Shown here: positions 27,593 to 49,184 of the stretch, in pieces | Layout of the letters: each line of letters starts with the position of its first letter | How positions within the stretch are numbered: the stretch's first letter is position 1 | Source of the DNA: Opitutales bacterium | GTDB lineage: Bacteria > Verrucomicrobiota > Verrucomicrobiia > Opitutales > JABDGR01 | NCBI GenBank assembly: GCA_035546135.1 | Contig: DASZWY010000136.1 | Span: forward strand, 1-62,017 | DNA length: 62,017 nt | Direction of reading: 5' to 3' | Made by a program: the position numbers and the translations under genes | The notes under the pieces: model-generated | Databases searched by the model: none | Seen by the model: only the letters and a program-made list of their open reading frames with translations | What the model was told of the DNA's origin: nothing

Positions 27593-27598
27593 ATAGGC

Positions 27599-29391: not shown

Positions 29392-30417
29392 ATGCCAGAC
29401 ATTGCACAGCCCGGCATCGTCGGGGCCCGCGAGGACCTCTCCGATGTCATTTTCGCGATTGACCCTCAGAGCACACCGCTCCTGGCGGCAATCCCCAAGG
29501 GCAAAGCGCCCAAGGGTTATCTCCACGAGTCCCAAGCCGTCCTGCCGAAACGCGGGAAGAAAACCGGCGTGCCCGCCGGCGAACCACGCGGGGACCCGAA
29601 GCAAGCGTCCGTCCGCAAGCTCGTCTATTCCTGCCCGCACGAACTGCGGTGGGACTGGGGCGTGGCCAAGCAGACGATTGACGTCATGGGCGACAACGTC
29701 GCCGGCATCGCCGACCTCGTCGCCGATGAAATCATGTTTGCCATGGCCAACGTCAAGCGCATGCAGGATGAAATCCTGGGCGACACCGGCGACCTGGTGG
29801 ACGTGAACGACGGCCCGACGGAAACGCGCGGCGCGGGATCGGCCATCTCGAGCGCGCCGCAAGGCTCGCACCCGATCGACCCACTGTTCCTGCCCACCGC
29901 AGCGCAAATCTACACCGGCGACCTTTCAGCGCTAACGGAAGACACATTCCGCGACCTGATTTCGGCGTGCTGGATGCGCGGCAACACCGTGCGCCGCTAC
30001 ATGGGCGTTTGCGGCATGGCCATCAAGAAGACGGTGGGCACGTGGAGCATCCGCAAGGAAAACGTCGACGGCTTCACCAACGTCCGCCAATTCCAGCAAA
30101 GCGGCCTGCAAGACCGCGTACTGTCAAGCGTGGTGGATTCCCTGGAAACGGACGGCGGCACGGTCGAGCTGCATGTGTCCGGCAACCTGAACGTGCCGCG
30201 CACCAGCGACGACACCTTCGTGCCGGACTACAACCAGGCCAACTGCTGCTACATCTTCCCGATGGACGACCAGTACTGGGAAATGGGGCAGTCGCGGCCG
30301 ATGCGAAACGACGAGGCGCCCACCGACGTCGCCTCCCGCCAGGGCACCGTGAGCTGCATCTTCGACAACCGCATGCTGCCGACGTGCATGGCGAAAATTA
30401 ACGCGGCCAACGGCTAA
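29392..30417 (+). CDS. major capsid protein (inferred)
   Basis: 341 aa, after the scaffold-like gene. The N-terminus QPGIVGAREDLSDVIFAIDPQSTPLLAAIPKG resembles the SU10/P22-like (DUF5309-type) capsid family as I recall it. Confidence 0.65.
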   Translation: MPDIAQPGIVGAREDLSDVIFAIDPQSTPLLAAIPKGKAPKGYLHESQAVLPKRGKKTGVPAGEPRGDPKQASVRKLVYSCPHELRWDWGVAKQTIDVMGDNVAGIADLVADEIMFAMANVKRMQDEILGDTGDLVDVNDGPTETRGAGSAISSAPQGSHPIDPLFLPTAAQIYTGDLSALTEDTFRDLISACWMRGNTVRRYMGVCGMAIKKTVGTWSIRKENVDGFTNVRQFQQSGLQDRVLSSVVDSLETDGGTVELHVSGNLNVPRTSDDTFVPDYNQANCCYIFPMDDQYWEMGQSRPMRNDEAPTDVASRQGTVSCIFDNRMLPTCMAKINAANG

Positions 30418-30491
30418 GCAAGCGCAGGGACGCCGAAGTGACTAAGGCGCGCCTTTGACCATCCCACTTCCACCTCAACGAAAGCAAAACC

Positions 30492-30983
30492 ATGTCAGCA
30501 AGAATCTATCCACTCTCCGCACCGGAGCGGGCGAAACACCTCGCCACCCACATCGTCAAGTTGCAATACACCGACCTTATCGGCCTGACCGGCGCGTCAA
30601 CGGCGGCCACCGCCGTCGCCGCCGTGCTGTTTGCGGCCAAGGCGGGAACGCGCGTCGAATACCTGGGGCACCGGCTGGTGACGCCGTTTGCCAATGGCGC
30701 GGACGCCGCGTTCAACACCAACACGTCGAAAGTCGGTGACGGCACCGACGACGACCGTTTTGGTCTGTCGCAGGAATTGAACCTGAACGGCACCTACGTG
30801 CCGGTCGGACCGGTCAGCGCGCCGGCCACAACCCAGCCGTATCTTTACGGCGCGGACACGAACGTCCTGGCCACCATCGGCTCGATGACGGGCAAGAAAA
30901 TCAGCGACCTCACGCAAGGCGAGGTGCATTACTTGTTCCGCCTGACGAACCTGAAAAAGGTCTCGGACAGCGTGCCGGGCTAA
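30492..30983 (+). CDS. hypothetical virion-associated protein
   Basis: 163-aa ORF directly after the capsid gene, followed by strong hairpins. Confidence 0.5.
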   Translation: MSARIYPLSAPERAKHLATHIVKLQYTDLIGLTGASTAATAVAAVLFAAKAGTRVEYLGHRLVTPFANGADAAFNTNTSKVGDGTDDDRFGLSQELNLNGTYVPVGPVSAPATTQPYLYGADTNVLATIGSMTGKKISDLTQGEVHYLFRLTNLKKVSDSVPG

Positions 30984-30989
30984 AAGCTT

Positions 30990-31062
30990 CCCGGCCAGCC
31001 TACGGCGGCATGGCCGGGCAGGGTAGCAACGGGAGCGCCGCGCGGGAAAACGCGGCGCTCCC
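30990..31062 (+). terminator. two GC-rich hairpins downstream of the capsid-region genes
   Basis: CCCGGCCA (30990-30997) pairs with TGGCCGGG (31011-31018). GGGAGCGCCGCG (31031-31042) pairs with CGCGGCGCTCCC (31051-31062), with an 8-nt loop. No U-tract follows. Confidence 0.35.
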
Positions 31063-31080
31063 ACTTCCCCACCACACCAC

Positions 31081-31536
31081 ATGCACATCGGGCCCGTCAT
31101 CAGCCCCATTTTCGGCGACATCACCGCCATGGTTGAGGCCTCGCTGCGCCGCAAAATCCGCGCGCAACTCGACGCGCAGGCGCGGCGCGCGAAAGCCGCG
31201 CAGCGGCTGGTGGCGCGACTGGCCGGCCCCCGGCAAATCATCCGCGGGCTCGGGGAGCACAAGATGATGCTAGCGCCCGACGTGTACTGGCACTGGTTCC
31301 ACCGCGAGGGCGCGGACTGCTGGGGCGACAAAGGCTTCTGCCGCGACATCGCGCGCGACAATCCGGAAATCCTGGTGCGCAATGAAAAGCCGATGGACCG
31401 CGTGAGCCTCGCGGGATTGGACGTGCCCACAACGCGGCGCCGGCCGGAACCGACCCGCGCCCAACTCACCGCGGGCAAACATCCGCGGCAGCAGGCGGCC
31501 GCCATCCTCAACGCGCCCAACCGCGCCCTGACCTGA
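31081..31536 (+). CDS. hypothetical protein
   Basis: 151-aa ORF. No motif recognised. Confidence 0.5.
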   Translation: MHIGPVISPIFGDITAMVEASLRRKIRAQLDAQARRAKAAQRLVARLAGPRQIIRGLGEHKMMLAPDVYWHWFHREGADCWGDKGFCRDIARDNPEILVRNEKPMDRVSLAGLDVPTTRRRPEPTRAQLTAGKHPRQQAAAILNAPNRALT

Positions 31537-31538
31537 AA

Positions 31539-32489
31539 ATGCGCACGCTCCCGCTCAAACAGTTGCTCGCGCAAATCGCGGTGCTCGTCGGCACGCGCTG
31601 GCAGGATTTGCTCGCGGACGAAGCGTCGCGGTGGACGGACGCGCTGAACCTGCGCATCGAGAGCGCGTGGCAGGCCTTTCACTGGCCGGAACTGCGCGTC
31701 ATCGAGCAGCGGTACTTCTACGACGGACTGTGGAAGGCCGGCAGCTACGCCGCGGGCAAAATCAAATACCACGCGCCGACGCAAAAATACTGGCAGGCGG
31801 CGGTGGCCACGAGCGCGACGCCCGGCGCGAACGACGACTGGACGGAACTGGCGGAGCCACTGTACCGCATCGTGCCCTGGGACCAGGACGACCAGCCGCC
31901 GCTCGGCGACCTCTACAGCGTGCACGCGGAAGACCCGCGCCCGCACCGGAGCGCGCGCGAGCTGGCCTTCGACCTGAACGGCGACGGCGCGCGCATCCTG
32001 CCACCGCACCACCAGCCGCTCAGCGCCTGGGTGCAGTACCGCCAAGTTTGCCCGAGGTTTGCCGGCGAACCGTACCAGGACGGCCAGGAATCGGCCCCTG
32101 GTGAAATCTATTATTACGCGCCGGCCGGGGAGTGCTACCTGTGCCTGGTCCCGACAACGAGCGTGCCGGCGGATAGCGTGCCCTTTGGCACGGAGGGCGG
32201 CGACATCATCGGCGACGAAAGCGGCAACTGGTTCGCGACAGATATCGCGCACTGGCAGCGCCAGCCGATTCCGGCATTTTTGCAGCGCGCGCTCGCGCGC
32301 GGCATCTACGCGGACCTATTGCGCGGCGACGGCCTGGAAGACGAAGCGAACGACGCCGAACAGCTTTACCAGCAGGCGCTCCAGCAGCAAATGAAGCGCA
32401 TCGTCCATCAAAACAATCAACTGCCGGAAATGCGCGTATTCCCGGGCCGGCGGCCACGCCAGCCCAGCCGCTGCCGGCTCACCGCCTAA
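31539..32489 (+). CDS. hypothetical structural protein (head-tail adaptor candidate by position)
   Basis: 316-aa ORF between the capsid and tail-fibre genes. It contains the variant palindrome at 32057. Confidence 0.5.
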   Translation: MRTLPLKQLLAQIAVLVGTRWQDLLADEASRWTDALNLRIESAWQAFHWPELRVIEQRYFYDGLWKAGSYAAGKIKYHAPTQKYWQAAVATSATPGANDDWTELAEPLYRIVPWDQDDQPPLGDLYSVHAEDPRPHRSARELAFDLNGDGARILPPHHQPLSAWVQYRQVCPRFAGEPYQDGQESAPGEIYYYAPAGECYLCLVPTTSVPADSVPFGTEGGDIIGDESGNWFATDIAHWQRQPIPAFLQRALARGIYADLLRGDGLEDEANDAEQLYQQALQQQMKRIVHQNNQLPEMRVFPGRRPRQPSRCRLTA

Positions 32490-32501
32490 ACCCCACATGC
32501 C

Positions 32502-32828
32502 ATGTACATCCGGCTAGCCACCATCGCCCGCGCCCTGCGCGTCAATGACACGGACAACCACGTGCCGGCACCCGCCAGCGCCGACAGCCGCCCGGCCACG
32601 CCGGCCCAGCCGGATTCACCCATCACCGTGCCGGGCACCGCCGCCGAACCGCCCTGGTGCGCCATCACGGCGTTGGCCGACGCCGTGTTCGACACGCTGA
32701 CGGCGAGCAACTGGAACGGCGGCACGCAACAGACCAGCGTGCCATTGCCGGCGGGCACAACCATCTACGGGAACTTCACCCAATTTCAACTCGCGAGCGG
32801 CGACATCATTGCCTACTGCGCGCGCTAA
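32502..32828 (+). CDS. hypothetical protein
   Basis: 108-aa ORF. Confidence 0.5.
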   Translation: MYIRLATIARALRVNDTDNHVPAPASADSRPATPAQPDSPITVPGTAAEPPWCAITALADAVFDTLTASNWNGGTQQTSVPLPAGTTIYGNFTQFQLASGDIIAYCAR

Positions 32829-32834
32829 ACCGCC

Positions 32835-34592
32835 ATGCCACCTCCCGCCGTCATCCGTCCCACAGCATTCCCTTCGGCGAGCAGCATCGCCGACTCCGAC
32901 GTCATCCCGATCGACGGAGCGGACGGCGTGCGCAAAATGACAATCGCTCAGGCCGCGACGCGCTTTGGCGGCGGAGGCGGGAGCGGGACGGTGACCAGCG
33001 TGGCGCTGAGCCTGCCCGGTATTTTCAGCGTGAGTGGTTCGCCCGTGACGGACGCCGGCACGCTGGCGGCGACATTGGCTAATCAGAACGCCAACCTGAT
33101 TTTTGCGGGACCAAGCAGCGGCAGCGCGGCCGCACCGACCTTTCGCGGGCTGGTTTCGGCGGACATTCCCGCCAGCGTCGCACTAAGCGGCACGCCGACC
33201 GCGCCCACGGTGGGGACGGCGACAGACAGCACGACGAAGATTGCGACGACAGCGTTTGTGCAGGCGGCGATTGCGGCCGCGGGCGGCGGCGGGGGCGGCG
33301 GCGCGTGGGGCAGCATCACAGGCACGCTGGCTGACCAAACCGATTTGAGCACGGCGCTGGCGGCGAAAGCGCCGCTGGCCTCGCCGACGTTCACCGGCAC
33401 GATGACGATTCCGACGGTGGCGGGAACGTCAGACAATTCCACCAAGGCGGCGAGCACGGCGTTTGTGCAAGCGGTGGTCGCGGCCATTCCAACAGTGCCG
33501 GCGGTAAGTGGTGGCACGTCGGGAAAAATTCTCTCGAATAACGGCACGACGGTTTCCTGGGCCTCGCCGGGCTTTTTCGTCGATGGAGACGGCAACACCA
33601 TTTTCAACGGCACAACGCCGATATCCGTGCAGTACGGCGACGGCTCGGTAAACGCGAATTTCAACGTTTACGGTTGCGTGGCCGCCTATTCCACCACGGG
33701 GCTGCATAAAATCGTTTATGACGCGGACAACACGTTGGACGTGCTGCTGATCCAAAAAAACGGCTTAAAGGTAGACGGGGTGACGCCCAACGGCCAGAGC
33801 GCGATTGATTTTCTTTCCAATGCAGACATCGGAGATGACTACGACGGAACGGGCTTCATCAAACACGATGCAATTTACGGCGCAATGGGCTTCGACCCTT
33901 CGCTTTCCTCGAATGTCCCGAGCAACGGGCGGATGTATCTTTCCTTCAGCCCCGGGTTTCAGGCGCCAGATTTCGACCTGCCGACGACCGGCGTTGGCGC
34001 GTTTGTGCTGCAGCAGGAAGGCGTCATCGGCGGCGTTTACAAGGCGGGTTACGCCTGGGCCTGCAACAATGACTGGTCCATCTCGCGCACGGACCCGAAC
34101 CGCAATGAGCAGTTCCGAATGTATGGCGTCGGCGACAGTGGTTACTACGATACAAACTGGACGCAAGTGGACGACTCCAACCACTACTGGGGCACGACGC
34201 CCATGGGCGTGACCATTCGGCAGACCAGCCATGAGAGCAAAGAAGTGGTCATCGGCATCCGCTCGAGCAATTTCACAACGGCGGGCTATGAGGTTTTCGG
34301 GCCGTCGAAAGGCTTTGTCGGCACCACCGCCGGGAATGGGCTTTCGCTTTATGCGTCCGCCGGACCGATGATGTTCACCACCGGCGGATTTGCCGCCGCA
34401 AACGAACGCTTCCGCATTGATTCGTCGGGCAACTTCATCGCCTCGAATGTGGTGACGAGCGACCTCTCCGCCACGCTGGCGAACAGCCAGTATCAGTTCA
34501 CCGTTTACGACAACGCCGGCACGGCCGTCTTTAAAATCCGTTACAAGGACGGCAGCGGCACGGTGAAAACCGGCACGGTGGCCCTCACTTAA
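32835..34592 (+). CDS. tail fibre protein
   Basis: Duplicated N-terminal module (GTPTAPTVGTATDSTTKIATTAFVQAAIAA and PTFTGTMTIPTVAGTSDNSTKAASTAFVQAVVAA), typical of phage fibre shafts. Gly run. 585 aa. Confidence 0.65.
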   Translation: MPPPAVIRPTAFPSASSIADSDVIPIDGADGVRKMTIAQAATRFGGGGGSGTVTSVALSLPGIFSVSGSPVTDAGTLAATLANQNANLIFAGPSSGSAAAPTFRGLVSADIPASVALSGTPTAPTVGTATDSTTKIATTAFVQAAIAAAGGGGGGGAWGSITGTLADQTDLSTALAAKAPLASPTFTGTMTIPTVAGTSDNSTKAASTAFVQAVVAAIPTVPAVSGGTSGKILSNNGTTVSWASPGFFVDGDGNTIFNGTTPISVQYGDGSVNANFNVYGCVAAYSTTGLHKIVYDADNTLDVLLIQKNGLKVDGVTPNGQSAIDFLSNADIGDDYDGTGFIKHDAIYGAMGFDPSLSSNVPSNGRMYLSFSPGFQAPDFDLPTTGVGAFVLQQEGVIGGVYKAGYAWACNNDWSISRTDPNRNEQFRMYGVGDSGYYDTNWTQVDDSNHYWGTTPMGVTIRQTSHESKEVVIGIRSSNFTTAGYEVFGPSKGFVGTTAGNGLSLYASAGPMMFTTGGFAAANERFRIDSSGNFIASNVVTSDLSATLANSQYQFTVYDNAGTAVFKIRYKDGSGTVKTGTVALT

Positions 34593-34690
34593 CTTTCAAC
34601 CCATTCCCCCTATAACGGCCTGCCTTGCCCACTGTTCAAATCGCGCGCGATTTCCAGCCAACAGAGGCAGGCCACCTTTCCCCCAACACC

Positions 34691-35110
34691 ATGAAGCTCC
34701 CCTACAAAAAAATCATCTTAATCCGCGCGGCGCTCAACGCCCTGGATGGCCGCGAAAAAACCGTCGAAGTCAAAGGCCAGACGAGCGTCATCGTCAAGCC
34801 GTTCAAGTTTTCCGGCAAGACGCGCCTGAAAATCGCGCGCAACCTGCGGGCGGTCGAGGGCGCGTTTCAGGATTATGACACGGCGCGCATCGGCCTCGTG
34901 CGGGAAAACGCGAAGCCGGAGGAAGACCGCGTGGCCGACGACAAGCTGGCGCAATTTAACAAGCAGCACGAGGAACTGCTGGAGAGCACGGCGGAAGTGA
35001 CGCTCGACCCGCTGGCCGAAGGGGACCTCAACCTCGATGACAACGAGATCCCGCACGGCGCGCTGGCGGTGCTGCTGGAATTTCTCATCCCGCCCGCGGC
35101 GGCAAATTAA
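34691..35110 (+). CDS. hypothetical protein
   Basis: ATG 34691 (MKLPYKKIILIRAALNALDG). The track start at 34625 is a TTG. Confidence 0.5.
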   Translation: MKLPYKKIILIRAALNALDGREKTVEVKGQTSVIVKPFKFSGKTRLKIARNLRAVEGAFQDYDTARIGLVRENAKPEEDRVADDKLAQFNKQHEELLESTAEVTLDPLAEGDLNLDDNEIPHGALAVLLEFLIPPAAAN

Positions 35111-35146
35111 AACCCCTTCACCCTCTATTAAGACCCTTTCACCCTC

Positions 35147-36190
35147 ATGAAACTCTACGGATACTACAACCAAGAACGCCTGCGCGAGAAACCGACCAAG
35201 ACGGAACTCGGCATTTTCTTTGCCGTCATGTTTTTGACGGTGGCATTATTCGCGCTGCTGTGCTTTGCCGGATGCAGCGCGCCGGCGCTGCCCGGCCAGA
35301 CGGCCAGCGAGGTGAAGCTGGACCGGGCGCAGGACGCGCAACTGAGCCACGCGGCGGCGGCGGTGCAGGCGGCGCAGACGGCCAACCAGGCGAACCCGGA
35401 GGGATTGCCGAAGACGGCGACCGCGGGCGAACTGGGCGTGGCGAACGCGAATTTGCCGGAGCCGAAACCGGAAGACGCGCGCGAGGCGCTCGCGCGGGTG
35501 AACGCGGCCCTGACCGGCCAGCTCGCCACGGCGCAGGCGGCCTGGGCGAAAGCCGAAGCGCAGGGCAACGCGCTCCAGGGCAAGATTGACGATCTGCAAA
35601 AACAAGTGGCGGCGGAGAAGGCGGCGGCGGCGGCCAACGAAAAGAAGGCCAACGACCGGCTGTGCATCATCGCGGCGCTCATCATCGGCGGAGGGTTCAG
35701 CCTCGGCGCGGGCCTCAGCCTGGCGGCGGGATTGTACTTCGCGCTGCCGAAGCTGGAATACGGCGCGGCGGGGCTCGGGCTGGCGGGCGGCCTGGCGTTC
35801 TTTGCAGCGACGCAAGTCGGCACGACGCATTTCAACCTGCTGGCGACGGGCATCATTTTGGCCGGGCTGGCGGCGGCCGCCTACACAGTCTGGCACAGCT
35901 TTGCCGCGGGCAACACGCTCACGACCAAGGCGGACGGCCTGGACAGCGCGATGAGCGCGCTGAAGACCTTTGCGGCGCACGCGGCCGCGGACGTGGAAGT
36001 GGGCGCAAAAGACCTGGGCCATTTTCTCGAAAAGGAATTTGACTGGGCGGAAACAAAAGTGGCGGACGGCTGGGACTTCATCATCGGCGCGCTAAAAGGG
36101 CTGGTGAAGAAGCCGCTGCCGACCGCCGGTTTGCCGGCAAACAACGCGGTTCCGGCCGCCACGCCCGCCTTCCCGCCCACCGCGCGCTGA
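35147..36190 (+). CDS. lipoprotein-like multi-pass membrane protein
   Basis: Lipobox-like LLCFAGCSAP. An Ala/Gln-rich coiled-coil region is followed by about four hydrophobic segments (IIAALIIGGGFSLGAGLSLAAGLYF, GLGLAGGLAFFAA, LLATGIILAGLAAAAY). It contains a perfect palindrome copy. Confidence 0.55.
   Translation: MKLYGYYNQERLREKPTKTELGIFFAVMFLTVALFALLCFAGCSAPALPGQTASEVKLDRAQDAQLSHAAAAVQAAQTANQANPEGLPKTATAGELGVANANLPEPKPEDAREALARVNAALTGQLATAQAAWAKAEAQGNALQGKIDDLQKQVAAEKAAAAANEKKANDRLCIIAALIIGGGFSLGAGLSLAAGLYFALPKLEYGAAGLGLAGGLAFFAATQVGTTHFNLLATGIILAGLAAAAYTVWHSFAAGNTLTTKADGLDSAMSALKTFAAHAAADVEVGAKDLGHFLEKEFDWAETKVADGWDFIIGALKGLVKKPLPTAGLPANNAVPAATPAFPPTAR
36129..36142. repeat. GTTTGCCGGCAAAC palindrome, perfect copy (GLPAN)
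   Basis: Read directly from the sequence. Confidence 0.95.
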
Positions 36191-36223
36191 GCGCTCCGCC
36201 CACACCCCGAACGCCCTTCGCCA

Positions 36224-36562
36224 ATGACACCGCCGGAAGTCATGAAAGCCATCCAGGACGCGACGGACAAGCTGTCGGCGAACATGACGCCAAACTACGA
36301 AATCGCGCTGCTGTTCATCCTGCTGTGCACCGTGGGCGCCGGCATCGTGGTGTTCCTCATCATGCAATACAACCGGCTGGCGGCCATCGCAAACAAGACG
36401 AACGAGCGGCTGCTGAGCCTGCATGAGGAAAACACCACCACGCTGATGAAAGTGGTGAGCGCGAACACCGTGGCCACCGAGGAAAACTCGCGCCTGATGG
36501 GCGCGGTCACCCGGCACCTCGAAGACACCCGCAGCGCGTACCTCAAAAGTTTCCACGGCTGA
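36224..36562 (+). CDS. single-pass membrane protein
   Basis: One TM segment (IALLFILLCTVGAGIVVFLIM) followed by a helical tail. 112 aa. Confidence 0.5.
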   Translation: MTPPEVMKAIQDATDKLSANMTPNYEIALLFILLCTVGAGIVVFLIMQYNRLAAIANKTNERLLSLHEENTTTLMKVVSANTVATEENSRLMGAVTRHLEDTRSAYLKSFHG

Positions 36563-36566
36563 ACCC

Positions 36567-38363
36567 ATGCGCCCGCACGCCACCTACCCGAACGAAGAAG
36601 GCCCGACGATCGACGGCGACGCGGGCTGGAGCGGCGTGGACCTGCGGCGCGACCCGGGCATCCTGCCGCAAGGGCTGGCGAGCGCCGCGCAAAATCTCGA
36701 GTTCCGCCAGGGCGGCGCGGAGACGCGGCCCAGCTTCGAGACGAAGGCGTGGGGGCAGGACTACGCGCTCGCCAACCTGGAAGACCCGGCGCTGGACTGC
36801 GACGACATTGACTTCGACTTGCCGTGGGGCTTTGGCGAGGTGCTGGGCGCGGAGGATTTCAGCAATCCGAACGGCCAGGACATGGTGCTGTTGGCGGTGA
36901 AAAACGGCGTCTGGAAAATCGTGCCGCACGCGCCACCCGACCTCATCAAAATTGAGGACGGCACAGGCATCCTGACCGGCCCGGTGGAATTCGTGCAATG
37001 CTTCGACCGCGTGGTGATGCTGCGCGGCGAGGGGCTGCCGGATTTGGTGTGGAACCCGGCCCTGGATTTCACCGCCGGCCTCGACGCGTTCCGGCCGGTC
37101 AGCCAGACGGACGCGCGCAATCCGGACCCGGCGAACACGTTTGGCGACGGCACGCAGCCCATTCCGCCCTCGACTTGCGGCGCACTGCTGGGCTCGCGCC
37201 TGTGGTTGGACTTTGCCGGGGACCAGCTCGGCGTGTCGGACATCCTGGACTACACGCGCTTCAGCGCGGCGGAAAGCCAGCTCAGGGCCAATGCCGGCAA
37301 GGCGGACAGCATCGTGGCGCTGCGGCCGCTGGCGGAACAGCAAATGGTGGTGTTCTGCGACGACTCGATTTTCCTGTTCCAGAACGCGGTGGGCGACCTG
37401 TCGACGCTGGTGCAGGCGGTGCTCACCCGGCAGCACGGCCTGGCCGCGCGGCACGCGGTGGCGCAATGGGGCAACGACCTCTGGTTTTTGGCCGGGCGCA
37501 GCCGCGGAGTGTATTCGCTGGGGGCGACGGCGCAGGGCCTGATTCAAGCCGGCGCGGACCCGGTGAGCGCGCCCATCGACCCGCTGCTGCAGCGCGTGAA
37601 CTGGGGCGCGATTGGCGGGGCGTGCGCGGAGTCGCACGACGGCCGCTTCTACCTGGCCGTGCCGCTGGACGGCGCGACGCACAACAACGCGCTGCTGGTT
37701 TACGACGGCCTCAACCAGGCGTGGGCGGGGCTGTGGAACGCGGACTTTCTCGACGTGTACCGGTTTGTGAAAGTGAAAGTCGGCGGCAGCTGGCGGCTGG
37801 CCTGGGTGACGGGCAACAGCAACGCCAACCGCCAATGGCACGGCGCGCTGGTGCACCTCGGCGACGACCTGCAGGATTGGGCGTTTGGCGCGGCGCAGCC
37901 GATTGTCAGCACGCTGACGACGCGCGGCTACGGCGGAGTGCTCAGCGGCAGCCCGGAATGGAAGCGCTTCCTGGCGGCGGACGTCGAGGTGGAGACTTTC
38001 TACCCGCGGCTGACGCTCACCCTGACGGCCAGCGGCCAGCGCGCGCAGACGCTGCTGGACGGCGCGACGCCGAACCGGACCGCCAGCGTGAAGTTTGCCG
38101 GCAAACCGGTGAGCCTCGACAACCACGACGGCCGGCTGGGCTGCGCCGACCGGGCAGACTACGCGGTGCTGACGGGCGACTTTCCGCTGACCTTCGGCGG
38201 CGGCGTGGCCCTCGGGCGCTTCCGCCGCCAAACCCTGCGGCGGCGCGTGCGGGCGCGGGGGCGCTACGCGCAGGTGGCGCTGACCTGCGACCGCGGCGCC
38301 ATGCGGGTGCGCGGCGCCAACCTGCAATTCATCATCACCGACCGGGAGGACGTCTCGCGATGA
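36567..38363 (+). CDS. large virion structural protein (tail tube/nozzle-like by size and position)
   Basis: 598-aa ORF in the tail region. No motif recognised. It contains a perfect palindrome copy. Confidence 0.5.
   Translation: MRPHATYPNEEGPTIDGDAGWSGVDLRRDPGILPQGLASAAQNLEFRQGGAETRPSFETKAWGQDYALANLEDPALDCDDIDFDLPWGFGEVLGAEDFSNPNGQDMVLLAVKNGVWKIVPHAPPDLIKIEDGTGILTGPVEFVQCFDRVVMLRGEGLPDLVWNPALDFTAGLDAFRPVSQTDARNPDPANTFGDGTQPIPPSTCGALLGSRLWLDFAGDQLGVSDILDYTRFSAAESQLRANAGKADSIVALRPLAEQQMVVFCDDSIFLFQNAVGDLSTLVQAVLTRQHGLAARHAVAQWGNDLWFLAGRSRGVYSLGATAQGLIQAGADPVSAPIDPLLQRVNWGAIGGACAESHDGRFYLAVPLDGATHNNALLVYDGLNQAWAGLWNADFLDVYRFVKVKVGGSWRLAWVTGNSNANRQWHGALVHLGDDLQDWAFGAAQPIVSTLTTRGYGGVLSGSPEWKRFLAADVEVETFYPRLTLTLTASGQRAQTLLDGATPNRTASVKFAGKPVSLDNHDGRLGCADRADYAVLTGDFPLTFGGGVALGRFRRQTLRRRVRARGRYAQVALTCDRGAMRVRGANLQFIITDREDVSR
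38093..38106. repeat. GTTTGCCGGCAAAC palindrome, perfect copy (KFAGKP)
   Basis: Read directly from the sequence. The frame was checked against the CDS. Confidence 0.95.
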
Positions 38364-38893
38364 GCTTTCTCGACACTCCGCGCGACCTGCCGCAATTAGG
38401 CGTGACCCGCGCCGACTTCTACCGGCAGATCGAAAACGCGACGCCGGGCGCGGACTTTGCCGGGCCGACCATCAAGGTCGCGGGCGGCGCGGTCAACATC
38501 GCGGACAGCGTGCCGCGCTGGATCAAGGTCACGAAGGGCTACGCCGATTTCGCGGCGGGGGCAACCACGAATGACATTGAAGTCCTGCTGCTGCCGCCCA
38601 ACGGCGTCATCCAAGCGGTCGCCTACCAGCATGGCGCGGCCTTTGGCGGCGGCGGCCTGAGCGCGCTGACGATTTCAGTCGGGGTAACGGGCAACGCGAC
38701 GAAATACGGCGCGGCCCGCGACGTGGTCGCCGCGCCGAACACGCTGAACACCCTGGGCGGCGGGGGCACCGAATCAAACGCGGCCTCCGCCAGCATCCGG
38801 GCGTTTGCGAGCGCCACCGGCGACAACCTCAACGCAGCCACCACCGGCAGCATCGACATCTGGATTTGCTACGCGGTGCTGCCCAGCAGCTAA
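38360..38893 (+). CDS. hypothetical structural protein
   Basis: ATGA-coupled to the upstream gene. 177 aa. Confidence 0.5.
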   Translation: MSFLDTPRDLPQLGVTRADFYRQIENATPGADFAGPTIKVAGGAVNIADSVPRWIKVTKGYADFAAGATTNDIEVLLLPPNGVIQAVAYQHGAAFGGGGLSALTISVGVTGNATKYGAARDVVAAPNTLNTLGGGGTESNAASASIRAFASATGDNLNAATTGSIDIWICYAVLPSS

Positions 38894-42278: not shown

Positions 42279-45200
42279 ATGCCCCAACTCGCGGACATGG
42301 TCGAAGCGCCGCCGCGCCTGGCCGACCAGGTGGAGGCGCCCCCATCGCTGGCCGAGGAAGTGACCGCGCCGGATCAACTGCCCGAAAACCCGCAACCGCG
42401 CGTGCTGGTGAAGGCGGCCTACAACGACCCGAACGCGGTGACAAGCTACCAGATGGACAGCGAAGACGTGCCGCACAGCGTGGACAACAGCACGCCGGCC
42501 ATCTACCGCCCGCTCTACGACCAGGCCACGGAGCAAATGCTGGCAGACTGGAAAGCGGGAAAAAAACCGATTGACTGGAGCAAGCTGGACGGCGCGGGCG
42601 TGCTGGGGATGGCGGGATTGCTGATGCAGGCCTACCCCGACGACGCGGCGAAAATCAGCGAGGAGGCGCGGCCCTATGCAAAAGCGATTCTGACCGCGCG
42701 CGGCTTTCCGGATGAGGACGCCAGCACGCTCGCCGGCACCACGCGGCGCTTTGAGGACTTTGCCGGGGCGGCGGGCGGCAGCGCGCTCACCGACCTGGCA
42801 CAAAAGGCCGACCAACTCGCCACCGGCGCGACGCCGCAGGAAGCGGACGAGGCAATGGCGAACGCGTCGATGCTCGCGCGGCAGAACCGCGCGCTGTCCG
42901 CGCTGCAAAACGACGGCGACACCAACTGGCTGAAAACCGCGGGCGTCCTTTTGAGCTGGGCGGCCGGCGCAAACGCCGTGGCGCGCGGGCAGCTGGGCCT
43001 CCGGACCATGGCCGCGCTCGATGCGAGCGGCGCGCCCGTGCTGACCGAAGCCGGCACACCGCTGATGGTGCGCGCGCCGTTTCAATACGCCGTGGATCCA
43101 CTGTCCCTCCAAGGCATCCTGCGCAATGCAGGATTTTCAGCGGCGTACGCGGGCGCGCAGGGGCCAGAATACGTGCCCTCGATGCTGGCGCAAACCTTTG
43201 GCCTGCCGCAGGACCGCGTGAAGTCGGCGTTGGAGGCGGGGGGCCTCGACCTCGTGTTTGGCACGATCCTGCGCGGGCTGCACGGCGGCAGCCAGCTCGA
43301 CCAATGGCGGAAGGCGCCGGCATTTTCCGACCTGGCGGACCTGAACGACAAAGATTTCCAAGCGGCGGCCACGAAACGGGTGCAGGGCGCGCTGGCGGAC
43401 GAACTGGAACGACGCGCCGCTGCGGCGCGACCACCCGGAGCAGCCCCAGCGGACGCTCCCAAGCTCGCCGACCTCGCCGAAGCGCCCGAGGAAGCCACCA
43501 CGCCCGCCGAAGCCCCCGCGCCGGCCGCGGGCGATGCCGAGGCGCAATTCCTCGCCAAGGCCGCGCCGCCGCCCACCGAACCGCCGCCGACCGGCGGCGA
43601 AGCGGACGTGAACCAGTTTTACGATCTGGAGTCCATCACCGACCCGGAAGGCTTCGCCAAGCGACAGGACGTGCAAAAATTGCTGGGCGACTACGGCCTG
43701 ACGGAAGACGAAGTCGCGCGCACCACGGCGGACCGGCGCGCCGAACTGCTGAAGCTGGCGCCGGACGAAGTGAAGCAGCTCTACGCCGCGCAGCGCGAAA
43801 CGGACGCCCAAGAGGCCCTCGCGCGCCAGGCGCGCAGCGACGCGGCCCGCGCCGAATGGGAGCAGCAACAAGCGGCGCAGGCGCAACTCCGCAAGACCGC
43901 CGGCCTCCGGGCGGCCGCCGAGGCCCGCGCGGCCCAAGCCGACGCCGCCGCCAGCCAGGCGGCAAAGGAGGAGGCCTGGCAGCAACAGCAAGACGCGCGC
44001 GCGCAGGCCAGCGAGCCGTTTCACGCAATCCCCGAAGAAGAAATCAGCGACCGGATGGAATACCTGCAGTCCACCGAGCCGGAACACCTGGACGACGCAG
44101 CGCTGCAATGGGGCGCGAACCACGGGCTGGATTGGGCGGCCCAGGCCTTGCGCGAGCGCACGCTGCAAGACCCGATTGTGCGCGCGCAGATGCAGCAGGA
44201 ACACGACGCGGCAGAGCAGGAAAGCGGGGCGGTAGACCTGCTGACCGCCTTGCGCCGCGCGGGCCGCAAACTGCCGAGCCCCCAGCTCGCGCGCGCCCAG
44301 GGCGACCCGATGGCGGGCGAATTGCAAGACCTTTCCGACAGCCTGACTTTCGGCCAGCGGCAGCAAATCTTCGACTACAACCGCTACACCGACCCGGACC
44401 GGGTGCGCGAATCGCTGACGGAAGAAGGCTTCCGCTATGAGACGCCGGCAGAACTGCTGGCCGACGCGATTGACAACGCGCGCGGCTTCGCCCGCACCCA
44501 GGCCGCGCCGATGCTGATGCGGGAGGCCGCGGCGCCCCTTGACGAAACGGCAGAACGTGGTAATATAGGCAGCGATGAACGGCCAACACAGCAAGAACTC
44601 GCCCTGGGCGCGCAGGCCGTCGAGACATTGGGCCACGGTGCGAATGGGCCAACGGAAACGCGGATTGTCCCTGCAACTGGACACGGAATCCACCTGTCTG
44701 AGGGTGAGCCGGCGCGGCCAGGTGCTCACCTTGGCGGGCCCGGCTGGCGCGACGCGCTGCCCTCGTCCATAAAGTGGAAGGGCTACGGACTGGCGCGGCG
44801 GCTGATTGGCGACGGCGTCATCACGTTTACCGGCGAACCAATTCACGGGTGGGACGACCTGGCCGCGCGCGCGCAGGTGTTGCGCAACCCGCTGTTCGAG
44901 ACCTTCTACGCGCTGTTTTTCAAGGACGATACCTTGGCGGGAGTCTATGCCGTATCGAGCCGCGAGCCGTCCATCACGCGCACGCTCGCCCCAGGCGACA
45001 CGCCGGCGACGCTGAAGGCGATGAAGGCCAAGCTGGGCGCAAACGGCTACGCGTTTTTGCACAACCACCCCACGGGCGACGTGCGGCCGAGCCCGACAGA
45101 TGTCGAAACGTCGGAATGGCTGGCGGAGGAAATGGGCGACGGCTACCGCGGCCACATCGTCATCAACCACACGAAATACGCCATCATTTTTCCGAAAGAG

Positions 45201-48200
45201 GACGCGGAAATCGCCATTGAAGTGCGGGCGCTGCCCGGCGCGCGCGGCCGCGACCCGCTGCGGCAGCCGGAAATCAAGCATCCGGCGCTCGGACAAGTGA
45301 TGGCGTTTCCCGACCAAATCGCGCAAGCCGGCAAAGCGATGGAAAGCGGCGGAGACACGGTGACGGCGTTCCTCTTGAACAAGCGCAAGGTCATCAACGC
45401 GGTGGTGCAACTCGCGGTGGACGACCTGACGCGGCCCGGCACTTTTATAGACCTCGGCATGGCGCTGCGCGAATCCGGCGCGCCCGGCGCGGCGCTTTAT
45501 TACGCCGGCCCGCGCGGCGCGGAAGTCAAGCAGGCGGCGCACGACCTGATGCAGCGCGGGTACGTGCACGATTATGCGATTAAAAATGCCGACGGCACGA
45601 TGGATTTTCCCGGCCACGAGGAGTCGCAAAAAGCGGAGGAACGGCGAAACCGGCAGGCGGCAGAAACCACGAGCCTGCGCGTGCAGGAGGACGAAGACCC
45701 CGGCCAATTGGGCGAGTACCAAGCCAACGCGCCGTACCGCGTGGAAGTCAGCGACCAGAAGTGGGCGCCGCTCGAGCTGGGCCACCTGGAGAAGGTGCGG
45801 CCCGTGGAAATGCCGGAGCTGGTGCAGATGATTCGCGCGCTCACCGGCGACTTGCCGGAGCTGCGAAAACTGCCAAAGGCCGATGGGCTGTTCCGCGTCA
45901 GCCCGGCCGGCACGGCGCGCGTGGTGTTGGATCCCCGCATCTTCACGAACGCGGTGGACGCAAGCCGCACCGCGGCCCACGAGCTGGGGCACCTGGTGGA
46001 CTGGTTTCCGTCCGAGGCCGACCAGGGCAAGGGCACCTTGAGCCGGGGCAACATCCTCGGGCACCTGGCCGCGTTGCGGGGATACCTCAAAAACACGCTG
46101 GAGGCGATGCCGAGCGATGAGGCCAAACGGCTAACGCCGGAAGACCGGAAGTTTTTGCGCAACGCCGCAATGAAGAAAGCCGGGCCGCGACCGCCGGGCC
46201 GCCAGCCAGAATTTCTAAAGAGCTGGCAGGACAGGGCCGCGGCGATTTACCGCAGTCTCCTCGAACAAGCCGCCGAAAAACGCGGGCTGCTGCAACGCGA
46301 GGCGGTGACGGAGGAGCTGAAAACCATCACGGAATGGTGGCGGCCCTTCGAGCCGGAGAACGTGCCGGCGTCCTACCTCAAATACCGCTACAGTGCGAAA
46401 GAACTCTACGCCGACGCGCTCTCCGTGCTGTTCAACAGCCCCCAAGACCTCGCGCAGAAAGCGCCGAAGTTCTGGAAATCGTTTTTTGCCTACCTCGACA
46501 AGCGGCCCCAGGCCAAGGCACAACTGTTCGAAACGTGGGAGCTGCTGAACCGCGGCCAGCGGGCCGTGCTGGCGGAGCGCGAACGGATGATCCGGGGCAT
46601 GTTTGCCAGCGGCGAAGAACTGTTCATGCGCAAGTTCGAGGAACGCCGACTGCGGCACAACTCGCTGGCGGGCTGGAAAAGCCGCCTGAAACAGGAATTT
46701 TGGGACCACTATGCGCCCGTGATTGACCGCGCGCGGCAAAAATACGGACACGAACTGGACCAAGTGGGCCAGCCGGCCAAGTTTTACGACGACCCGCGCT
46801 GGATATTTGACGCGCATCCCCTCGCCGCCGGCAACCGCGAGTACATCTTCAGCAGCCGGCTGTTCCACCGCATCGTGCGGCCGCTGGAACGCAGCGGCCT
46901 GACCACACAGCAGCTCGGCGAGTTCATGCTGCACAACCGCATCCTCAACGAAGCCTACGCAGACCAGGCGGGCAACGCCGGCGGCCGCGCGAACCTCGCC
47001 AATCCCCTCGGCCTGACGCCGCTGCAGGCGCGGCAGCACCTGCTGAAGCTGCGGCTCGATTTGGGGATGGAGAAGATGACGGCGCTCGAACGCGCCGCGC
47101 GCGATTTTCAAGACCTGACCTTTGCGGCGACGCGCGAAGCGGTGGACGTGGGCAGCTACCACCGCGAGACCTTCGCCAAAATCGTCGAGCCCAACCGGCG
47201 CAACTACGCCACCTTCGCGGTGCTCGACGGGCTGGAAAACAATCCGCACATCCCCGCCGGCATCCGCGCGCAAACCGGCACGCTGAAGGACATCGCCAAC
47301 CCCTTCACCGCGCAGGTGCTGAAAACCATCACGCTGCTGCGGCTGAACGAACTGCAGCGGGCGAAGAACGCGATGCTCGATGGTTTGGCGGCAAACTTTC
47401 CGGGCGACTTTGCCCGGGCGGAAGTGACGCGGGACGCCACCGGGCGCGCGACGCCGCGGCCGCCGCCGGACGGGCGCGAGCAGCTCATGCGGCTGGTGGA
47501 CGGCCAGCCGGAATACTGGAACACCGACCCCTACATCGCGCGCGCGTTCGAGCGGCTGGTGCCGGCGCAGGCCTCCGCCGCGCTCCAAGCGCTCAACCTG
47601 CCCTGGCAAAAAATCTTTTACCCGCTCGCCATCAAATACAATCCGGCGTTCATGCTGTGGACGGCGCTCTACCGGCATTACATCCAATCGGCGCGCAACC
47701 TCGGCGCGGTGACGCAGGGCCGGGCCGGATTCTGGAAGCTGGCGGGCGCCTACCTGCGCAACTACCAGGCGGCGGCGGCCTATGCGGACGGCAAGGCCCT
47801 GGAAACGGCGGGGGCCGGCATCGTCAACGACATGATGCACAACCAGGCCATCGGCACGCCGCTGGACACGCAGATTTACACCGACGCGCGCAACGACCAC
47901 CTGGAACAATTGCTGGAACGCGCACGCGTGCTGCCCGAGCGCAAGTCGCCGTGGCAGGAGCACAACCTGTTCCGCACGCTGACCTGGCTGCCCCGGCAAA
48001 TCGCGCGGCAGGGGTCCATCCTCGCCGTGCTGCCCAAAGTGGGCGCGTACGACGTTCTCACGAACGAGCTCGGCATGCCGCGCGGGCTGGCGGCAAACGT
48101 GGTGCGAAACTACATCGGCATCCCCAACACGCGGAAGAAAGGCACGTACACCAATATCGCGGCGGTCATCCAGCCGTTTCTCAATGTGGCAATGAAAGGC

Positions 48201-49184
48201 TACGCAGCCGACGCGGCCCTGGCCACCCACCCCAAGACGGCGGCAGGCTGGTGGTATCGGTACGCCATGAGTGACGGCCTGATGCAAATACTGCTGGCCC
48301 TGGCCGCCGCCGGCGTGTTCGGCAAGGCGCTGGAGGAAATGAGCCAAGGCATCGGCGGCCGCGACAAGATGAATTACGCGGCGCTCCCGCTCGGCACCAC
48401 GGAAGGCGGCGAATACGGCCACAAGACCACCGAACTGCGCCTGCCGATGGATCCGAGCGCGAAGGCGATTTCAGGACTGCTGTACTGGACGACCTACAAG
48501 GCGGCGATGACGGCGCAGGGCCGAGCCAGCGCGGCCACACCGCTGCCCAACGCGCTGAATTTCCTGACGGAACAACTGCCGGGCGAAAACCCGACCCTGA
48601 AAATCGCGCAAGCGTGGAAACAATATCTGGGCGGCCAGAACCCGATTGACGACTACCGCGGGCAGCCGATTCTGACCGACAACGAATTTCTGGCCGGCGG
48701 ATGGGACAGCCTGAAACCGATGCTGGCCTGGACCGCCGACGAGGGCGGCGCCAGCTCGTTCTTCCGCTACGACCCGCGGGCAAACACCACGACGGAAACG
48801 GTCGTGGGCGGCGCACCGGTGCTCAGCAGCATCCTCAAATTCACCGACCAGGGTTACCGCGAGCAGCAACAGGCGCAGCAGCTCGCGGATGAAAGCGCCC
48901 ACGCGCGCGCCGTGCTCGATTTGCCGGCCGGCGTGCAGGCGCTTATCCACGAATACGAATACCTCGACCGGGTGAAGGCCGCCGACCGCACGCCGGCGCA
49001 GCAAGAACGCTTCGCGGAACTGGCGGCCTGGCATCACGCGCTCTACGACCGCAGCGGCGGCGGCCCATCGCTGATGCAGCACTACGTGCAGGCGCACAGC
49101 AGCGGCGACACGACCGCGGCGCAGGAGCAGGCCCAGAACCTCGCCGCGTTCAGCGCGGGCTATTTCCCGCAATCCGCACATTGA
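42279..49184 (+). CDS. giant polyvalent virion protein (2301 aa) with JAB/RadC-like and zincin HExxH modules
   Basis: Uninterrupted 6.9-kb ORF. The JAB/MPN-RadC motif FLHNHPTGDVRPSPTDVETS has its first His at residue 928 (nt 45060). The metallopeptidase motif AAHELGHLVDW is at residues 1234-1238 (nt 45978-45992). N-terminal short repeats (LADMVEAPP / LADQVEAPP). A Gln/Ala coiled-coil tract lies near 43800-44000. Confidence 0.8.
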   Translation: MPQLADMVEAPPRLADQVEAPPSLAEEVTAPDQLPENPQPRVLVKAAYNDPNAVTSYQMDSEDVPHSVDNSTPAIYRPLYDQATEQMLADWKAGKKPIDWSKLDGAGVLGMAGLLMQAYPDDAAKISEEARPYAKAILTARGFPDEDASTLAGTTRRFEDFAGAAGGSALTDLAQKADQLATGATPQEADEAMANASMLARQNRALSALQNDGDTNWLKTAGVLLSWAAGANAVARGQLGLRTMAALDASGAPVLTEAGTPLMVRAPFQYAVDPLSLQGILRNAGFSAAYAGAQGPEYVPSMLAQTFGLPQDRVKSALEAGGLDLVFGTILRGLHGGSQLDQWRKAPAFSDLADLNDKDFQAAATKRVQGALADELERRAAAARPPGAAPADAPKLADLAEAPEEATTPAEAPAPAAGDAEAQFLAKAAPPPTEPPPTGGEADVNQFYDLESITDPEGFAKRQDVQKLLGDYGLTEDEVARTTADRRAELLKLAPDEVKQLYAAQRETDAQEALARQARSDAARAEWEQQQAAQAQLRKTAGLRAAAEARAAQADAAASQAAKEEAWQQQQDARAQASEPFHAIPEEEISDRMEYLQSTEPEHLDDAALQWGANHGLDWAAQALRERTLQDPIVRAQMQQEHDAAEQESGAVDLLTALRRAGRKLPSPQLARAQGDPMAGELQDLSDSLTFGQRQQIFDYNRYTDPDRVRESLTEEGFRYETPAELLADAIDNARGFARTQAAPMLMREAAAPLDETAERGNIGSDERPTQQELALGAQAVETLGHGANGPTETRIVPATGHGIHLSEGEPARPGAHLGGPGWRDALPSSIKWKGYGLARRLIGDGVITFTGEPIHGWDDLAARAQVLRNPLFETFYALFFKDDTLAGVYAVSSREPSITRTLAPGDTPATLKAMKAKLGANGYAFLHNHPTGDVRPSPTDVETSEWLAEEMGDGYRGHIVINHTKYAIIFPKEDAEIAIEVRALPGARGRDPLRQPEIKHPALGQVMAFPDQIAQAGKAMESGGDTVTAFLLNKRKVINAVVQLAVDDLTRPGTFIDLGMALRESGAPGAALYYAGPRGAEVKQAAHDLMQRGYVHDYAIKNADGTMDFPGHEESQKAEERRNRQAAETTSLRVQEDEDPGQLGEYQANAPYRVEVSDQKWAPLELGHLEKVRPVEMPELVQMIRALTGDLPELRKLPKADGLFRVSPAGTARVVLDPRIFTNAVDASRTAAHELGHLVDWFPSEADQGKGTLSRGNILGHLAALRGYLKNTLEAMPSDEAKRLTPEDRKFLRNAAMKKAGPRPPGRQPEFLKSWQDRAAAIYRSLLEQAAEKRGLLQREAVTEELKTITEWWRPFEPENVPASYLKYRYSAKELYADALSVLFNSPQDLAQKAPKFWKSFFAYLDKRPQAKAQLFETWELLNRGQRAVLAERERMIRGMFASGEELFMRKFEERRLRHNSLAGWKSRLKQEFWDHYAPVIDRARQKYGHELDQVGQPAKFYDDPRWIFDAHPLAAGNREYIFSSRLFHRIVRPLERSGLTTQQLGEFMLHNRILNEAYADQAGNAGGRANLANPLGLTPLQARQHLLKLRLDLGMEKMTALERAARDFQDLTFAATREAVDVGSYHRETFAKIVEPNRRNYATFAVLDGLENNPHIPAGIRAQTGTLKDIANPFTAQVLKTITLLRLNELQRAKNAMLDGLAANFPGDFARAEVTRDATGRATPRPPPDGREQLMRLVDGQPEYWNTDPYIARAFERLVPAQASAALQALNLPWQKIFYPLAIKYNPAFMLWTALYRHYIQSARNLGAVTQGRAGFWKLAGAYLRNYQAAAAYADGKALETAGAGIVNDMMHNQAIGTPLDTQIYTDARNDHLEQLLERARVLPERKSPWQEHNLFRTLTWLPRQIARQGSILAVLPKVGAYDVLTNELGMPRGLAANVVRNYIGIPNTRKKGTYTNIAAVIQPFLNVAMKGYAADAALATHPKTAAGWWYRYAMSDGLMQILLALAAAGVFGKALEEMSQGIGGRDKMNYAALPLGTTEGGEYGHKTTELRLPMDPSAKAISGLLYWTTYKAAMTAQGRASAATPLPNALNFLTEQLPGENPTLKIAQAWKQYLGGQNPIDDYRGQPILTDNEFLAGGWDSLKPMLAWTADEGGASSFFRYDPRANTTTETVVGGAPVLSSILKFTDQGYREQQQAQQLADESAHARAVLDLPAGVQALIHEYEYLDRVKAADRTPAQQERFAELAAWHHALYDRSGGGPSLMQHYVQAHSSGDTTAAQEQAQNLAAFSAGYFPQSAH

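Follow-up and report, generated by a model that had tools for sequence, protein, structure and literature searches.

The DNA analysed here, referred to as the window, is an entire 62-kb contig (62,017 nt; DASZWY010000136.1) of the 2.9-Mb metagenome-assembled genome (MAG) of an Opitutales bacterium. A prophage of 43 kb spans ~6.2-49.4 kb of the window. Our subject is the terminal gene of the prophage late operon, which encodes a giant protein of 2301 amino acids. The gene, and the parts of its product that could be delimited, are as follows.

42279-49184, plus strand: giant polyvalent protein gene, 2301 aa, terminal gene of the prophage late operon
42282-42371, plus strand: three tandem 10-aa peptides, PxLA[DE]xV[ET]AP (aa 2-31)
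42396-43448, plus strand: N-terminal domain without a family match (aa ~40-390), common only to relatives P0025 and P0082
43458-43487, plus strand: fourth peptide copy, PKLADLAEAP (aa 394-403), opening a Pro/Ala-rich linker
43767-44015, plus strand: Gln/Ala/Glu-rich helical, coiled-coil-like tract, read from the sequence (aa ~497-579)
44229-44528, plus strand: small helical domain of ~100 aa, LLxxLxxAGxxLP...GE... (aa 651-750), found in nine other giants including LPD38-type P0022
44826-45233, plus strand: RadC-clade JAB/MPN+ domain (aa ~850-985), putative metal site E874, H928, H930, S938 and D941
45270-45593, plus strand: degenerate second RadC-like domain (MPN-minus; aa ~998-1105), in which the Glu and HxH are gone
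45771-46598, plus strand: HExxH (zincin-like) domain (aa ~1165-1440) with H1234, E1235 and H1238, and candidate third ligand E1375 in ELYAD
46599-49046, plus strand: large, mainly alpha-helical domain (aa ~1441-2256), a distant relative of LPD38-type C-terminal modules
48264-48332, plus strand: strongly hydrophobic helix, the sole one in the protein (aa 1996-2018)

An earlier sequence-only reading had described the open reading frame (ORF) as a terminal polyvalent protein with N-terminal short repeats, a Gln/Ala coiled-coil tract, a JAB motif and an HExxH motif. Each of these was found, the Gln/Ala tract in the Gln/Ala/Glu-rich form listed above. The gene itself is real. It is open for 2301 codons from an ATG start, and the stop codon of the upstream 399-aa gene lies 3 nt before it. 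The GC content at the three codon positions (0.70/0.47/0.83) is of coding type and like that of neighbouring plus-strand phage genes, and the best matches to related proteins reach E 1e-237. The high GC content accounts for the long antisense ORFs over the gene, which reach 975 aa. The JAB motif lies in FLHNHPTGDVRPSPTDVETS (aa 926-945), within which HNHPTGDVRPSPTD spans aa 928-941. The second motif lies in AAHELGHLVDW (aa 1232-1242), where HELGH is 1234-1238, and H928 is separated from H1234 by 306 aa. Both motifs are near-invariant across family alignments (23 JAB segments and 159 HExxH-bearing modules, respectively) and so are not chance occurrences. Scans of the whole protein with Pfam, PHROGs and NCBIfam gave nothing beyond sub-threshold RadC matches.

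The largest conserved unit is at the C-terminus. A word-indexed search identified 21 giant relatives of 1856-3745 aa. Local BLAST showed that aa ~1165-2256 are common to all 21, and aa ~830-1165 to some only. A HMMER search with aa 1151-2301 collected 1934 representative clusters, defined at 50% identity, at E<=1e-3, and 1305 at E<=1e-30. In this survey the module is nearly always C-terminal in its proteins, which have 1000-4100 aa, and it makes up the entire length of a few proteins of ~1100-1200 aa. The cargo upstream of the module in relatives includes RadC, MuF_C, DarB-like AAA_34/Helicase_C_4 (methylase/helicase), a ResIII helicase, and InPase with DarA_C. Because the C-terminal module is common to all whereas the upstream parts differ, sequence comparison defines the organisation of the family as a constant carrier of ~1100 aa joined to exchangeable N-terminal cargo. 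The ~1000 residues in which the sequence-only reading recognised no motif are the carrier part, and this conserved unit of 1100 aa had been missed. The AlphaFold2 model of the module is mostly helical and of moderate quality (predicted local distance difference test, pLDDT, 66.7; predicted template-modelling score, pTM, 0.48). When the model of the whole module was compared with PDB folds, nothing appeared at E<=0.001 and only generic helical-repeat proteins were returned; a PDB sequence-profile search with the module returned low-complexity noise only. No Pfam-A or PHROGs model recognises either the HExxH domain or the helical end of this subfamily.

We also scanned one genome per species for the module. 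This gave 29 loci, all in MAGs, from phyla including Verrucomicrobiota, Gemmatimonadota, Proteobacteria, Candidate Phyla Radiation groups, Planctomycetota and Acidobacteriota. The module is present in just one of 40 host relatives, and such a patchy spread fits a phage gene.

The carrier begins with the HExxH domain. Among 159 aligned modules, H1234 is kept in 159, E1235 in 158, H1238 in 158 and E1375 in 157, and about 70 further positions are conserved in the same alignment. In the AlphaFold2 model of aa 831-1440, HELGH lies inside a predicted helix (model residues 395-411). E1375 is also helical and, owing to an insert, is 137 aa downstream; it would be the third metal ligand. The region is modelled with a beta-beta-alpha-beta-beta-alpha pattern (pLDDT about 57-69). 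This succession of predicted strands, helix and strands, and then the HExxH helix, underlies the zincin reading. No Pfam or NCBIfam model and no PDB sequence matched the region, and comparison of the HExxH-bearing module with PDB folds gave only faint matches to anthrax lethal factor (E>2). Thus, of the zincin module proposed from the motif, the conserved and helical motif stands, and a match to a zincin family or solved fold was not obtained. On alignment and model together the domain is a probable zincin, and its conservation suggests that it is catalytic.

The JAB module is more readily placed. E874, H928, N929, H930, P931, S938 and D941 are invariant in the 23 aligned JAB segments, so that the JAMM metal-site pattern E...HxH...S..D is present. 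A profile of the 23 segments matches 2QLC in the PDB (RadC, Chlorobium tepidum) at E 5.5e-16. Pfam RadC (PF04002) is matched by 23/23 segments, at best 4.3e-23, and Prok-JAB by only 11 of the 23, more weakly than RadC. For the window protein the PF04002 score is 23.0 bits with the isolated segment, above the gathering (GA) threshold of 22.1, and 18.5 bits with the whole protein, below it. At aa ~850-985 the model shows an alpha/beta domain predicted with confidence (local pLDDT 75-87), for which the top PDB matches in Foldseek are 2QLC chains (E 7e-7; template-modelling (TM) score 0.79, target-normalised; root-mean-square deviation 1.9-2.4 A). The metal-site residues, the profile matches and the superposition of the modelled fold together identify a genuine RadC-clade domain with an intact metal site, as the sequence-only reading had suspected.

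A degenerate second copy, which that reading did not report, follows. It matches the N-terminal two-thirds of the JAB domain (hhalign 95.3%, E 2.1e-8), is modelled as alpha/beta with a pLDDT of about 80, and has no conserved His. The HNHP(S/T)G...PS..D motif is carried by 35/168 family proteins, and the degenerate copy is present in all 32 of the aligned RadC-bearing relatives. Where the distance could be measured, the RadC motif lies 282-348 aa ahead of HExxH in 31 of 33 proteins. We found no earlier description of such a pair of active and dead RadC copies. The domain shares with RadC (PF04002; 2QLC) the HNHPxG...PS..D signature, the upstream Glu and the fold. It differs in that it sits in a 2301-aa phage protein, is followed by the degenerate copy, and has T for S in HNHPTG. 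Domain parsing by profiles and structure prediction, which the sequence-only reading had recommended, hence yielded the RadC JAB domain, its degenerate copy and the conserved C-terminal 1100 aa, and left the HExxH domain without a family.

These data bear on the suggestion that the JAB module targets host ubiquitin-like (Ubl) conjugation. As an injected isopeptidase, it would remove ubiquitin-like modifiers and so disarm Ubl-conjugation defences of the Bil/Bub or CBASS Cap2 type. The full JAMM set is invariant, as this would require, and the fold weakly matches an Rpn11 homologue and PfJAMM1 (E about 2e-3 to 7e-3). An MPN+ domain adjoining an MPN- copy also recalls Rpn11/Rpn8-type pairs, in which MPN+ is combined with MPN-. 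Conversely, Ubl-specific JAMM enzymes superpose on the JAB model with TM scores of only 0.38-0.54, against 0.79 for RadC, which is by far the best structure, and the Pfam comparison likewise favours RadC. RadC is without an established substrate (PMC11981726); nucleic-acid substrates have been predicted for it, and the groove for a ubiquitin tail is said to be lacking (PMC5512222). No Ubl defence system turned up near the element, where none was searched for, and we found nothing specific in the literature on RadC in phage anti-defence. We therefore regard the ubiquitin-like target as improbable.

The position of the gene informs its role. The relevant features of the prophage are given below.

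29392-30417, plus strand: SU10-type major capsid protein gene
36567-38363, plus strand: gene for a 598-aa tail-hub, 'head closure Hc3' or 'stabilization protein'-like protein, first gene of the conserved block
40123-41073, plus strand: gene for a 316-aa Ala/Gln/Thr-rich protein, candidate ejection protein, with homologues at the equivalent place in L003 and L005
41076-42275, plus strand: gene for a 399-aa Ala/Gln-rich protein, candidate ejection protein, whose relatives keep size and, weakly, sequence
49407-49446, no strand: attR, a perfect 40-bp copy of 6175-6214, 223 nt past the stop codon of the giant gene

The first copy of the 40-bp repeat lies inside tRNA-Asn (6140-6214; the 5' part of tRNA-Asn is at 6175-6214). 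The flanks of the prophage are chromosomal and encode an ABC transporter, an FGE-sulfatase-type enzyme and GTP-PEPCK. The giant gene stops at 49184, with no gene between it and attR, and so does end the late operon as had been proposed; a weak terminator-like hairpin is located 3' of it (49320-49346). The two smaller proteins ahead of it are both of low complexity and Ala/Gln-rich, as had also been noticed, and neither has a PHROGs, Pfam or NCBIfam match. We found no genes for a tail tube, sheath, tail chaperone or baseplate in the prophage. Since its gene content lacks a tail tube, sheath and baseplate, the element looks like a temperate podovirus.

The order in the window is the tail-hub-like 598-aa gene, then the 316-, 399- and 2301-aa genes. 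In two metagenomic phage contigs of ~40 kb, the structural block closes with the gene for a relative of the giant. The proteins ahead of it, of ~600-690, ~350-440 and ~400 aa, are weakly but significantly similar to the 598-, 316- and 399-aa proteins of the window. A tblastn search of the giant protein against 50,697 phage records returned one weak match, in Pelagibacter phage Baldr, which indicates that close cultured relatives are lacking among those records. The matched Baldr protein has 2329 aa and covers the whole module (hhalign 100%, E 5e-58, 953 columns). Its gene follows those for the capsid, tubular tail proteins A and B, two small proteins and a 606-aa protein, and precedes the tail fibre gene; this is the slot of T7 gp16. 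The likeness to podovirus ejection-protein operons noted at first sight is borne out by the retention of the block in phage contigs and by the place of the module in Baldr.

Structural comparison linked the module to proteins of other phages. Among the predicted viral structures of BFVD, the module matches the C-terminal parts of many phage giants with E-values from 1e-28 to 1e-13. Their annotations read 'large polyvalent protein associated domain (38)' (LPD38), LT_GEWL, RelA/SpoT or methylase; those annotated LPD38 are at about E 1e-13. A profile of the 159 module sequences also matched the LPD38-type protein PTXU04_00025 (hhalign 96.3%, E 1.7e-9, 477 columns), which is 28% identical to P0022, itself LPD38-positive by Pfam. 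On these profile and model comparisons, the helical end is remotely homologous to LPD38-bearing C-terminal modules. Many cultured phages, with genomes of ~35-65 kb, have LPD38-type ends; several are known podoviruses, and the hosts include Vibrio, Bacillus megaterium, Pelagibacter and E. coli, among others. In one of these phages, Pelagibacter phage HTVC010P (L007, KC465898.1), the annotation divides the LPD38-like region (record 13027-16650) among several short coding sequences that adjoin or overlap, in place of one long gene; the gene may be split there, or the annotation or sequence may contain errors.

Two LPD38-class giants have been detected in virions. Burkholderia phage JC1 gp69 (4515 aa, LPD38 near the end) gave 51 unique peptides in CsCl-purified virions, and its gene closes the morphogenesis module behind those for virion proteins gp67 and gp68 (PMC9144972). 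Similarly, gp47 of Stx phage phi24B (2811 aa) was seen by proteomics and is missing from the cryo-electron microscopy map; an ejection role has been proposed for it (bioRxiv 10.64898/2026.04.10.717836).

Two other roles may be weighed against this context. The protein might not be packaged, and might instead be a cytoplasmic multi-enzyme made late or in the lysogen, for instance for superinfection exclusion or anti-defence in the producing cell. The gene adjoins attR, a frequent site of accessory ('moron') genes in prophages, and direct virion evidence for its product is lacking. Conversely, the gene is translationally coupled to the structural operon, with its 3-nt gap, the same strand and the same codon usage. 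Phage contigs that are not integrated, and the lytic pelagiphage Baldr, keep it in the same position, and its remote relatives are virion proteins. An unpackaged role is thus very improbable. The great length of the protein, its largely helical character and its single hydrophobic helix would suit the tape measure of a long-tailed phage. However, genes for a tail tube, sheath, chaperone or baseplate are missing from the prophage, nothing lies between the giant gene and attR, and the capsid and tail-hub genes are of podovirus type. Phages with related modules have been reported or classified as podoviruses (JC1, PMC9144972; phi24B; HTVC010P; and Baldr, in which the gene layout is T7-like). We consider a tape measure next to impossible and rejected it on gene content.

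Taken together, the data lead us to propose, with a probability of roughly 70%, that the product of the giant gene is a polyvalent protein of phage type and serves a temperate podovirus-like phage as its largest internal (ejection) protein, combining a carrier, delivery of cargo and processing by the HExxH domain. Packaging is the more likely part of this proposal and processing the less likely; packaging and injection are supported by synteny and remote homology. The C-terminal carrier probably packs the protein into the capsid and takes it out via the tail with the DNA. With the 316- and 399-aa proteins, which would exit through the tail alongside the giant, it may also help to build a conduit across the envelope. 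The N-terminal cargo of ~1150 aa would enter the cell as infection begins. It would comprise the N-terminal domain between the 10-aa peptides, the coiled coil, the small helical domain, and the RadC JAB domain with its inactive copy. Most likely, the HExxH domain would then cut its own polypeptide, separating cargo from carrier; self-processing of this kind has been proposed for polyvalent proteins (Iyer et al., PMC5512222). The RadC pair would act in the cytoplasm early in infection.

Several points weigh against this proposal. There is no direct virion evidence for the window protein or its own subfamily, and the kinship to proteins detected by virion mass spectrometry is remote. Pfam LPD38 (PF18857) fails to match the giant protein even at E<=1, and hhalign of the module with LPD38-positive P0022 gives at most 59.7%. 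PDB sequence and fold searches revealed no likeness to solved ejection proteins (T7 gp14-16 and others), nor did they match the zincin fold to any solved zincin, and the module model used for such comparisons is of moderate quality only. Finally, the host is an uncultured MAG and the prophage may be defective, though its reading frames are intact.

The HExxH domain may have a different target within the same scheme. It could attack the host envelope, either peptidoglycan cross-links or envelope proteins, and open the path of the conduit as the T7 gp16 transglycosylase does. Such a role would be compatible with packaging and ejection of the giant. HExxH is tied to the carrier in nearly all of the aligned modules, as expected of a part of the ejection machine, and some relatives bear a lytic transglycosylase instead or in addition (the LT_GEWL matches; JC1 gp69 is LT-like). 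The authors of the phi24B study suggest a similar function for the gp47 metallopeptidase (bioRxiv 10.64898/2026.04.10.717836). Conversely, LPD38-type relatives such as PTXU04_00025 are without HExxH, which is therefore unneeded for ejection as such. No cell-wall hydrolase family was matched in Pfam, NCBIfam or the PDB fold search. Furthermore, to our knowledge, HExxH domains of the gluzincin type are not usual peptidoglycan peptidases; M15 and M23 enzymes are. An envelope target is hence unlikely, and we prefer self-processing.

Phage-type polyvalent proteins were described in 2017 (Iyer, Burroughs, Anand, de Souza and Aravind, J Bacteriol 199:e00245-17; PMC5512222), and the giant protein belongs to this known kind. 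It joins a RadC JAB domain, an HExxH domain and an LPD38-like helical domain within 2301 aa. It is encoded on the same strand and in the same operon as SU10-type capsid and tail-hub-like genes, inside an att-bounded prophage. It thus resembles the class in being a giant single chain of unrelated domains in a late or packaging context of a phage or prophage. The zincin-like HExxH, which is the commonest hub of the class, RadC and the LPD38-like end are further likenesses. For members of the class, packaging and transfer along with the DNA have been predicted (PMC5512222). In the summary of themes in that work, RadC is listed for polyvalent proteins of conjugative elements only. Here, in contrast, 35/168 phage-type relatives bear RadC at a fixed ~280-350 aa ahead of HExxH; RadC is therefore not confined to polyvalent proteins of conjugative elements, since a phage-type family carries it. 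A conjugative-element origin of the window protein itself was considered and set aside, since the gene sits in a phage structural operon and transfer genes are absent. New are the large subfamily of HExxH-plus-helical carriers, the pair of RadC and pseudo-RadC at a fixed distance from HExxH, and the peptide repeats.

Comparison with individual proteins refines this placement. Like LPD38-class giants (JC1 gp69 / Bcep22 gp75, phi24B gp47 and Escherichia phage PTXU04_00025), the giant is encoded by the last or near-last gene of the virion module, behind genes for smaller virion proteins, and has a variable enzymatic N-terminus and a conserved helical C-terminus. The window subfamily differs in that HExxH is fused directly before the helical part, and PTXU04_00025 has no HExxH. 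The cargo also differs, being RadC and pseudo-RadC in the window and a DarB-like methylase/helicase or a lytic transglycosylase in the LPD38-class giants. The protein of Baldr (EXVC032P; EXVC031PHodr_020, WDQ27601.1) is the sole cultured-phage protein found with the full module. It is about 21-24% identical, has another N-terminal half in which no RadC motif was found, and is annotated as hypothetical.

The ejection proteins of T7 (gp14/gp15/gp16) and P22 (gp7/gp20/gp16) are similarly encoded after tail hub genes as a series of three that grow in size, and the expected part in crossing the envelope is shared. No similarity of sequence or fold was detected, however; the window protein is far larger, and its enzymes are unrelated to the gp16 transglycosylase. 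The virion RNA polymerase of N4, gp50, offers another parallel. Its C-terminal domain consists of C1 with HExxH and then a helical C2 of ~110 kDa (PMC13434306), and the C-terminal region is needed for encapsidation (PMC5512222). In both cases HExxH and then a helical part of ~1000 aa end a giant ejected (in the window, presumably ejected) protein encoded behind two smaller ejection proteins. We looked for homology to the C-terminal domain of gp50 and found none by single sequence, by a 312-sequence hidden Markov model or by profile-profile comparison (hmmsearch, hhalign). The resemblance to N4 gp50 is an analogy of architecture only.

The N-terminal half of the giant is far less conserved. A word-based search for relatives with the N-terminal 480 aa found none, and low-complexity candidates swamped the search. 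The small helical domain (aa 651-750) had no Pfam match in the whole-protein scan. The three tandem peptides read PQLADMVEAP, PRLADQVEAP and PSLAEEVTAP, and with the fourth copy they border the N-terminal domain on both sides. To place this arrangement we examined 152 family proteins of at least 1500 aa, with shuffled N-termini as the control. A peptide of ~10 aa is duplicated within the first ~80 residues in 42% of the family proteins and in 1% of the shuffled controls. An extra copy hundreds of residues downstream is found in 18%, compared with 3% of controls. The sequence of the duplicated peptide varies from protein to protein, and the arrangement is kept (for example in P0020, P0033, P0054 and P0057).

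The repeated peptides could be docking or cleavage tags. Combining this with the features above, we tentatively suggest, as an idea that is more doubtful than the scheme proposed for the giant as a whole, that the PxLADxVEAP copies are lineage-specific address or cleavage tags. They would be recognised by the protein's own HExxH domain or by a capsid partner; the carrier would pack the protein, and the cargo would be cut loose after ejection. RadC and pseudo-RadC would form an obligate MPN+/MPN- unit acting on a substrate of early infection. If true, the tags would give a general rule for the loading and release of cargo across the family of ~1900 clusters.

Giant polyvalent proteins are thought to be injected phage toolkits, and very few have been studied. 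The subfamily described here, with ~1900 clusters in many bacterial phyla, has one carrier of 1100 residues bearing different enzymes. It also provides a clean example of a phage-type polyvalent protein that bears RadC, whose fixed partner is a dead RadC copy. As this RadC is probably delivered at the onset of infection, it is a useful handle on RadC function. A practical gain is better annotation of such proteins, now 'hypothetical', in podovirus-like prophages and metagenomes.

The remainder of the prophage holds a primase/helicase and a tail-fibre-like gene. Genes of 657 aa (18579-20552) and 770 aa (20764-23076) occupy the positions expected for terminase and portal, and had zero matches in PHROGs, Pfam and NCBIfam. 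They match syntenic genes of Phage C75C1 (L038, OQ984151.1; 39.5 kb), which has the 657-, 770- and 598-aa genes in common with the window. In this phage lineage, the genes for packaging have diverged strongly. A giant gene of ~2770 aa also occurs in Phage C75C1, downstream of the fibre gene and 'head closure Hc3' (38751..7576, spanning the origin). Its product is absent from the tblastn matches of the giant protein of the window (E<=1e-5); the slot is kept and the occupant is different. In the window, an ORF between the 598- and 316-aa genes (38805-40118; 437 aa, Arg/Gly/His-rich) was dropped as a probable wrong-frame artefact; by codon-position GC, the real gene in its place is likely 38866-39753 (295 aa).

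A 14-bp palindrome, GTTTGCCGGCAAAC, has eight perfect copies in the window, every one within the prophage. They are at 49216-49229 and at 6792, 10489, 12097, 17591, 36129, 38093 and 42091. The copies flank the giant gene, one 32 nt past its stop codon and one 188 nt ahead of its start. A ParB-like protein is encoded in the same prophage (11916-13673).

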